Assembly: GCF_002571385.2 (NCBI RefSeq)
Contig: NW_019217812.1
Span: 75,021-139,020 of the forward strand
Reading direction: 5' to 3'
DNA from: Stylophora pistillata
Taxonomy: Eukaryota
Length of the DNA stretch: 64,000 bases
The notes under the pieces were generated by a model, which worked only from the letters and a program-made list of their open reading frames with translations, was not told where the DNA came from and did no database searches. The position numbers and the translations under genes are program-made. Positions 38,353-40,084 of this stretch are shown here, in pieces. Position 1 is the first letter of the stretch. Every line of letters starts with the position of its first letter.

Positions 38353-40084
38353 TTACAGAACGAATTTACAACAGCGGTAGTTGTAGCGAACTTTCGCATC
38401 ATTGTATTTTGCCCATCTTATCAGGTGAAAACGAGCCAAGAAATAGCCAGATGGGCACTTAACATTTTGCCTGTCAAGGTACATGATGGGAGCGTTGGAC
38501 TTGTAATCCCAGTTAGTGTGTCTTTCGTGACATCGGACTTTAGAGCGGTCCACTCTGTTTTCCAGCCTGGTCAGACTTGAATCCAGCGAGGAAAGCCTTC
38601 CTAGTATGTGCTACCGTGACGTAATCATTGATAAAAGCAGAAATCGAATCGCCAATCAGTTCATTGGACGTTTCAGGTTGCAACGCAATACCTGTATTCA
38701 GTTACGTTCTACTCTTACCTTGTATATATATCCCAGAGTTTTGTGCAGGGTCCTGGCTTACTAATCCACTGTGCACCATTTCTGGTTCGTCCTTCAACTT
38801 TTCCAGATGCTTGCCAATGTCCTGAATATGTAACATGACAATTTTTGTTCAATAATGCATTACTTCGATTGACGCACCCTAAATGAATACGTACAGCAAT
38901 TCTCATAATCCGCCGCTTAGCCAACTGAGAAGTTCCATAAATAAATAATCAAAGTCCAATTCCTGCTTTACAAAAGCCCAACACTTAACTCACGTGCACT
39001 CCTTTATCATGAATCAATAATTGTTCACTTAATCATAGTTGTGACTCCTTTCCTTCTTTAGTGGGCAGAAGCCCAGTTTGTCCATTACTCTTTTCAAGTG
39101 GATTCGTAGTTAAGATTAGCAAAGGGATTGAAACATTAAGTTCAATTTCATTCGCATTCAGACCCTCATAAAGTTCTTTAATCATTGGTCAAACCATTCT
39201 GGACTTCATAAGGGCTCGCACCCTTGTTTTAGTATATGTGGTGGTGCCTAGTTTTTGCAAGCAGCTCTCTTTCGACATCGATAGAAAATTTCCTTTTTTG
39301 TGTTTTTTGTTTTGCTATTCTTTTCGTAGTACCTTCAAGAAATGACTTGTTATCTTTTCAGAGATTTTTATGTTTTTCCAGCCTCAGGCAAAGTAAAATA
39401 CTGGCTCTTTTACAGAGCTCGCAGCAGGCGAAAGTCATTTATGAATAAAGCAATAAACGGCAATTTTTTCGCGAGCACGTCAACACTACAAAAAATCGAC
39501 AATGTTGAGTACGAGATCTAACTTACTAACTGAGAAATAACTAAACAAAACGAAATCAACGTTAAAAATTTTTGAAATATTAAATCGTAGAAAATATTCA
39601 CTTTCCATTGTCGTCCATCTTCGACACCTCATTCACAAACAGCAAAGATAAGTGGATAATTTTTGTTGCAGAGAGTCCATGGAATATTTCAAAGTTATTT
39701 GAAGATTTTTAGTATTACTGCAATGTCTGGTATCACTTATATTATACCTTGGTGACCTTCGTGTGAGCATCCTGTGTCTTCTGTATCAGTCGTCCTTGCC
39801 TGATGATTGCCGGCTCAGTGTTGACTTTCAACTAAAATTATTATTGAAAAGGCTTTATTAATCGCTAAAAATTCATATTATAATGAAATAACTGAATTTT
39901 TCGGGTTTTCAAATATAGGGCGGTTTCGTAAGAGTGCTCCTTTAAGAGTAGAAACGCGAAGCTTTTAGTCTAAAATTCATACCACGATTGCCTTTGTATC
40001 TCGCAAGGGTGAAGCGTGATTCAAGTAAGACATCAGGGCACAACAAAGAAAAATTCCACCGATGGCACTTGTTAAAATCGTCAT
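38353..40084 (-). CDS. Uncharacterised secreted protein, 178 aa (signal peptide, propeptide, short coiled coil, C-terminal 4-Cys module)
   Basis: Exons 40084-39983, 39831-39748, 38821-38719 and 38600-38353 (537 nt, phases 0/0/1). Protein: MTILTSAIGGIFLCCALMSYLNHASPLRDTKAIV-LKVNTEPAIIRQGRLIQKTQDAHTKVTK-DIGKHLEKLKDEPEMVHSGLVSQDPAQNSGIYIQ-GRLSSLDSSLTRLENRVDRSKVRCHERHTNWDYKSNAPIMYLDRQNVKCPSGYFLARFHLIRWAKYNDAKVRYNYRCCKFVL*. AATAAA at 38281-38276. Confidence 0.8.

Follow-up and report, generated by a model that had tools for sequence, protein, structure and literature searches.

A Stylophora pistillata gene for a predicted one-module, coiled-coil trimer, with broken alleles in the reference assembly and among sampled runs

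Our best explanation of a four-exon gene of the coral Stylophora pistillata, to which we give about an even chance of being right, is that its intact alleles specify a likely secreted protein of 180 residues, predicted to be a coiled-coil homotrimer, in which three modules would together restore a three-fold, dermatopontin-like beta-prism head with glycans or microbial surfaces as its likely ligands. The gene lies on the minus strand of the window, that is, the whole 64,000-nucleotide stretch of DNA that was analyzed (contig NW_019217812.1, positions 75,021 to 139,020). The original prediction took the window copy to specify the whole protein; this copy is instead most likely a null allele, and a reference assembly can in this way conceal an expressed gene. 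The module in the last exon belongs to an unnamed domain family with members in bivalves and protists as well as in bacteria and giant viruses. In corals and anemones the family appears to have been converted into a trimer of one-repeat chains driven by a coil, a case of oligomer versus tandem repeat like that of resistin versus PCSK9. The features of the gene were as follows (window positions).

About 40170-40200, minus strand: limit to which the 5' UTR extends.
39983-40084, minus strand: coding part of exon 1, with the start codon, a predicted signal peptide (~24 aa) and the first mature residues (RNA and translation).
39821-39946: MITE-type DNA transposon end of 126 bp in intron 1.
39748-39831, minus strand: exon 2, 84 nt, phase 0/0, a charged linker (RNA).
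38719-38821, minus strand: exon 3, 103 nt in the window and 99 nt in all spliced RNA (RNA).
38723-38731: run of TA dinucleotides at the 3' terminus of exon 3; the window and run X17 have a longer version than RNA, and the added length shifts the frame.
38353-38610, minus strand: coding part of exon 4, 85 aa, coil plus module, with the RNA acceptor at 38610 in phase 0 (RNA).
38548-38607, minus strand: heptad coil, a predicted three-helix stalk, with a/d positions at exon 4 residues 2, 6, 9, 13, 16 and 20.
38591-38600, minus strand: acceptor of the original prediction (38600, none in RNA) and the site of a 1-nt insertion (38591).
38540-38542, minus strand: premature TAA, met under the RNA-supported splice by the window allele and by the allele with the extra nucleotide at 38591.
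38356-38541, minus strand: single 62-aa module with four Cys and a net charge of +9.
38260-38352, minus strand: 3' UTR with AATAAA at 38281-38276 and a poly(A) site near 38260.

Eight of 24 runs were compared with the window, six of them spliced (X2, X3, X23, X24, X1 and X20) and two DNA-like (X15 and X17). The four-exon transcript was recovered from the six spliced or RNA-like runs, which carried five study codes; X2 and X3 each gave one contig (721 and 741 nt, respectively) covering all four exons, and first mates lay mostly on the plus strand in the raw-read runs, indicating a minus-strand transcript. Translation starts at ATG 40084, with an in-frame stop two codons 5' of it, and the leader is hydrophobic (Kyte-Doolittle 11-window maximum of 2.48). 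The start, the leader, the exons at 40084-39983 and 39831-39748 and the beginning of exon 3 at 38821 had all been predicted, and open reading frames, RNA and hydrophobicity agreed with them. Junction 2-3 was present in all six spliced runs and junction 1-2 in five of the six (with an adjacent SNP in X3; X24 gave no row), confirming this part of the predicted structure. A GC donor at 39992 was also considered and was ruled out by RNA. A loose poly(A) end was located at 38261, downstream of the AATAAA signal.

Intron 1 contains the end of a young MITE, which supplies the acceptor AG of exon 2 together with its first 11 nt and thereby contributes about two extra residues compared with Pocillopora. 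The element has inverted ends of ~185 bp that finish in TTAA and is presumably Kolobok-like; 40 scored copies, including this one, showed 94-100% identity, and 182 candidates were counted.

The third junction differed from the prediction, which had placed it at acceptor 38600 in phase 1 to give the sequence IQGRLSS. All six spliced runs instead joined exon 3 in phase 0 to the AG at 38610, upstream of the predicted one, and in all six the TA run was 4 nt shorter than in the window. Phase 0 was also found for the last intron of two paralogues in the same genome, and the Pocillopora orthologue (XP_027046825.1, 181 aa) reads GIYK-HL across this junction. With the short TA run, the exons contribute 34, 28, 33 and 85 residues to an intact product of 180 aa. 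The frame of the original prediction exists only because the 4-nt-longer repeat of the window happens to be offset by the downstream AG. When the 103-nt exon 3 of the window is joined to acceptor 38610, the frame shifts and TAA at 38542-38540 is reached 22 codons on, before the first Cys of the module (38532), so the product of this allele is most likely a headless protein of 119 aa.

It is doubtful that the window copy is functional through a splicing shift to AG 38600, or that its long TA run is an assembly error. The downstream AG would yield an open frame, but a joint to 38600 was absent at a level of ≥5% from two raw-read runs and absent from four contig runs. All six spliced runs had the short TA run, so carriers of the long run might still use this AG. 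The long run is unlikely to be an assembly slip, because an independent 629-nt contig from DNA-like run X17 that crosses the end of exon 3 shares it and yet differs from the window at 8 other letters. This contig also carried a further frameshift (an extra base at 38477) and the changes L45I and L58F, at positions that are 100% and 90% conserved in single-module proteins. As the depth of X17 was 212 over exons 3-4 and 114 in the upstream flank (~2-fold), some of its variants might sit on a second copy.

Additional broken alleles were detected. A separate 1-nt insertion at 38591 in X1, X15 and X20 (three study codes) leads to the same TAA, and half-depth contigs of X15 and X17 had codon 20 of exon 1 changed to a stop together with C14S (40025 and 40044), constituting a further null haplotype. 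Overall, a frameshifted contig was present in four of the eight runs compared and an intact frame in the other four, counts in which contigs can mask heterozygosity and sampled runs may span cryptic species. The occurrence of several independent loss-of-function changes among the sampled colonies suggests that S. pistillata can do without the gene or that selection on it is relaxed. As both intact and broken alleles are present in public data, existing RNA-seq could be used to relate genotype to the microbiome, bleaching or disease, with no need for gene editing.

The last exon gave no useful sequence match in Pfam or the PDB, and PDB profile searches returned generic coils or nothing. Among cluster representatives, however, 649 matches were obtained at an E value of ≤0.001. 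In the best 150 of these 649, the numbers of proteins with 1, 2, 3, 4, 5, 6, 8 and 9 modules were 30, 5, 89, 4, 7, 12, 1 and 2, respectively, and 103 of the 120 multi-module proteins had exactly three, six or nine modules. After 90 further proteins had been added, exactly three modules were found in 177 of 240. By these repeat counts, three modules form the unit of the family. Single-module proteins ("singles") had a distinct layout. Of the 26 singles that could be tested, 15 had a heptad directly upstream of the module, compared with 1 of the 99 multi-module proteins, and several of the heptad-negative singles look like fragments caused by intron read-through. The module ended at most 7 residues from the C terminus in all 30 singles, and 15 of the 19 proteins inspected, singles or close members of their clusters, had a hydrophobic N terminus. 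Profiles of the single and three-module ("triple") forms were matched by hhalign at 99.4%.

Among the matches listed, many of which are nameless, every named single came from a stony coral or an anemone (Pocillopora, Oculina, Porites, Montipora, Acropora, Actinia, Exaiptasia, Actinostola and Nematostella), and the nearest named proteins, from three Pocillopora species, had ~87% identity across the last exon. Named tandem forms among these matches came from Mytilus, Pinctada, the dinoflagellate Gymnodinium and bacterial bins; structure comparison added prasinovirus OtV5, Edafosvirus and other giant viruses. The spread given in the original prediction was therefore right for algae or protists and large DNA viruses but not for tandem forms in cnidarians, since the named cnidarian matches were all single and the named animals with tandem forms were bivalves. 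In a quick tree of 60 columns in which 45 of 177 triples were sampled, 29 of 30 singles grouped together (SH-aLRT 93), and the group also took in a single triple module on a long branch. Any horizontal transfer would be ancient, because the gene has three introns and anemone orthologues. A scan of prokaryotic genomic context gave one weak locus (E value of 3e-4), and a virus scan gave none.

The predicted heptad stretch and four-Cys module, ending at the stop codon at 38353, were borne out by translation. Four Cys were present in 29 of 30 singles. In triples, C52 and C80 were 99% and 98% conserved, and C27 and C81 were gained or lost jointly within a module in 465 of 479 cases; since the first pair is near invariant and the second co-occurs, disulfides C52-C80 and C27-C81 are probable. 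The proposed processing site at QDP was dropped as unsupported because the motif is not conserved, being EDP in Pocillopora and missing from the other singles of alignment A1.

The structural core of the original prediction was that one repeat plus a trimerizing coil could rebuild a three-fold domain, and this idea held, given the one-versus-three counts, the upstream coil and the score of the predicted trimer. A model of a triple relative (pLDDT 92.6) consisted of three equal units, and the V-x-C position of each repeat formed a short strand. The lone exon 4 monomer was modeled as a helix and three long strands (pLDDT 78.6, with segment 41-50 poorly predicted); the V-x-C strand was missing from this model and paired with a neighboring subunit in the trimer. 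The three-copy model, one of the copy numbers originally proposed for this check, scored 0.82 in three runs against 0.09 for the best of 3 controls, although the tool was calibrated on two copies, a job unlike the three-copy one, and left the supplied alignment unused. Contact agreement was ≥95% and partner pLDDT was 85-86. In calibration, the mark for this score was reached by 21 of 30 solved homodimers and none of 23 monomers (17 of 29 and none of 30, respectively, for eukaryotes), but by only 1 of 7 eukaryotic cases without an older solved relative, and memory of resistin-like or generic coils could inflate the score. The surest contacts in the model were between heads: L58, F57 and F61 lay on the axis, and residues 50-52 faced residues 59-62 of the neighbor. 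The coil contacts tracked the six a/d positions.

Fold searches placed the triple relative nearest to dermatopontin (PF14704) among named families. The Atlas TM score between predicted models was 0.61 for the triple relative, so the originally proposed dermatopontin likeness stands at the level of the predicted fold; VMO-I, which had been named alongside it, and jacalin were absent from the fold-search matches listed, which excludes neither. The likeness would consist in a three-repeat, disulfide-rich extracellular beta domain. Feature scores reached 0.91 to clusters with 16-23% DERM members, and weak Pfam scores were seen in 3 of 54 relatives. None of the 30 singles passed the PF14704 gathering cutoff (best E value of 0.018), the best of the 54 relatives scored 24.5 bits against the required 28.3, and hhalign probabilities against a shallow coral DERM profile of five exons were 1.5% and 4.9%. 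The coral protein differs from dermatopontin in consisting of one repeat and a coil, and the genome has separate true dermatopontin-family genes. A TM score of 0.62 was obtained in the Atlas between the triple relative and a nameless part of molluscan aerolysin-like proteins.

The dermatopontin likeness raises the alternative of a structural role, in which the trimer would be a dermatopontin-like part of the organic matrix, extracellular or skeletal, with matrix proteins or polysaccharide as its ligands and no role in defense. One bivalve triple is labeled 'Nacre protein' in the database, and triples are fused to TSP1, EGF, fn2 and Link domains. We consider this rather unlikely, as the same single-module genes occur in non-calcifying anemones, the head is basic and not acidic and frequent null alleles would fit a core matrix protein poorly.

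Comparisons with solved structures were all middling, with Z below 8 (the level taken by the tool to lie above common arrangements) and Foldseek E values above 0.001. The triple model matched PCSK9 chains at Foldseek ranks 1-24 (best E value of 1.2e-3, TM of ~0.35), and the monomer model matched resistin and RELM-beta at ranks 1-3 (E values of 0.02-0.03, TM of 0.36-0.44). VIA aligned the monomer with resistin at Z 4.6 and an rmsd of 2.7 over 68 residues including the helix, a value tied with unrelated small folds. The top VIA match for the monomer, FPM13 (Z 5.1, 5% identity), was rejected as a common beta-alpha-beta-beta arrangement; FPM13 is described as an 18-mer metalloprotein in PMC13028475. 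Resistin and the PCSK9 C-terminal domain are presented in PMC9238481 as a coil-driven homotrimer that matches a three-module domain with pseudo-threefold symmetry, and it is suggestive that our single and triple model queries fell on these two respective halves, although the scores do not show homology.

RELM proteins are described in PMC8253364 as having a signal peptide, a helical tail forming a parallel coil and a C-terminal disulfide head, and the coral protein is predicted to have the same layout. An antimicrobial alternative follows this likeness: a cationic, aromatic trimer would permeabilize bacterial membranes directly, like RELM proteins. The shared layout, the Foldseek ranks and the composition of the head (net charge of +9, 11 of 62 residues aromatic) speak for it. 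We regard it as unlikely, since the TM scores are low and the E values high, the head charge of singles has a median of only +3.5 and the coral head, with three long strands, a helix and four Cys, is not the six-stranded jelly roll with a Cys-rich signature that resistin has. PF06954 had no match in the 30 singles, and no sequence match to resistin or PCSK9 was obtained. PCSK9 differs further in that each of its modules is a six-stranded jelly roll held by three disulfides, and its TM scores were below 0.5. A search of the same genome for the Resistin family gave 0 matches; according to PMC6214176, the Resistin Pfam domain occurs in anemones, in proteins other than this one, and not in corals.

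It is improbable that the single trimer of corals and anemones and its tandem relatives share distant ancestry with resistin and the PCSK9 C-terminal domain and that all of them form, together with dermatopontin, one hitherto unrecognized three-fold superfamily. If this were true, corals would have a resistin-like antimicrobial trimer with natural knockouts segregating among colonies, and its effect on microbiome or disease would be directly testable. No paper that combines resistin, PCSK9 and dermatopontin was found.

Other systems bear comparison with the predicted trimer. The best VIA matches (Z 6.1-6.5) were of the beta-prism I type (Vip3 domain III, Cry domain II), a fold of three sheets around a pseudo-threefold axis that the triple model may share; Vip3 domain III ranked first for the triple model (Z 6.3, rmsd of 3.8 over 124). 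PMC7414852 identifies Vip3 domain III as a beta-prism and reports sugar recognition for this fold in some Cry toxins. Identity was 6-10% at an rmsd of ~4 Å, and the coral side differs in having an extra LDR helix, disulfides and three chains. PhoSL is described in PMC11186620 as a lectin of three single-repeat chains with tandem homologues, akin to beta-prism II. PhoSL-type lectins thus offer a precedent for the principle of single-repeat assembly, although no sequence or fold match to them was found. The same triple domain is present in uncharacterized prasinovirus/mimivirus-like proteins (OtV5 A9YW57, TM of 0.79 and 34% identity), and three Nucleocytoviricota clusters matched the triple relative at a TM of 0.93-0.94; these proteins differ in being tandem, without the coil-and-single design. 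On the models, the coral protein would work as a resistin-type or PhoSL-type trimer with a dermatopontin-like head while being a member of neither family. The principle of a one-repeat trimer is already known, whereas the family itself, which has no name, Pfam model or solved member, and its anthozoan single-repeat form appear undescribed. Searches with six orthologue locus tags or the motif found no paper on the family, whose proteins may be listed in supplements or proteome tables.

We infer that the head is a binding module because in tandem relatives the domain is carried by lectin, adhesion and MACPF proteins and the last exon had no match to a catalytic domain in Pfam or PDB searches; likeness of fold does not itself give function. 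Fusion partners of triples included tectonin, B-lectin, PAN, PA14, Link, TSP1, EGF, trefoil and MACPF domains. In the preferred reading of a secreted homotrimer, the stalk would hold three heads together, edge strand 50-52 of each subunit would pair with strand 59-62 of its neighbor and F57, L58 and F61 would pack on the trimer axis. The trimer would then be trivalent and cationic and would serve in recognition or agglutination at mucus or tissue surfaces. Such a trivalent basic head on a stalk would suit the binding or clumping of microbes or glycans at a surface, a role we hold to be about evenly balanced between right and wrong. An acidic D-G-x-G-N loop typical of triples (G 76%, G 78%, N 58%) is replaced in singles, and the singles may therefore bind something else or nothing.

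A role in venom, whether of nematocysts or of toxin gland cells, was judged highly improbable. Named singles are restricted to Hexacorallia, the triple form was fused to MACPF in 2 of 54 proteins scanned and fire coral has a dermatopontin-family cytotoxin, all of which were counted in its favor. Against it, no toxin family was matched in Pfam or the PDB, the coral protein lacks a pore-forming domain and the literature search with the six locus tags found no paper naming them. In the two MACPF fusions (P0011 and P0057), which are uncharacterized, the triple domain was at the C terminus. The targeting domain of pore-formers is often found at this end.

The whole genome (398 Mb in 5513 contigs) was considered for relatives. 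Three more single-module matches were detected and no tandem form, which is a lower bound because introns break matches. Two of these, L002 and L003 (G000:C678:83348-88486), are on opposite strands ~4.7 kb apart, and each has an upstream coding exon and one module; heterotrimers with their products are possible. The third, L004 (G000:C87:796938-797159), is nearly identical to the last exon of L002, has unmatched upstream sequence and shows a stop codon where the last Cys should be, and reads as a pseudogene fragment. The true dermatopontin-family exons were clustered (L005-L012), with 13 matches above the cutoff on four contigs. L002 resembles a long-coil subfamily common to Nematostella, Actinia and Exaiptasia. 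The sharing of at least two subfamilies by corals and anemones would also accord with a secreted trimeric signaling ligand that engages a host receptor, and a stalked trimer would suit receptor clustering. This was considered very unlikely: evidence for a receptor is lacking, viral and bacterial relatives look like binding modules and null alleles are common in the species.

Other sequences were noted in the window. Long low-complexity ORFs at 43492-45541 on the minus strand, without a Pfam match, include coiled-coil-like exons of an adjoining gene. Decayed pieces of LINE reverse transcriptase/endonuclease and a DDE_1 transposase fragment were located at 12878-16921, 17289-17726 and 26048-27509. 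Exons encoding one LamG and two fibronectin-III domains were present on the minus strand at 22436-24400 and 6055-6726, and an exon downstream of these, although it had no Pfam match, looks by eye like a receptor tyrosine kinase insert.
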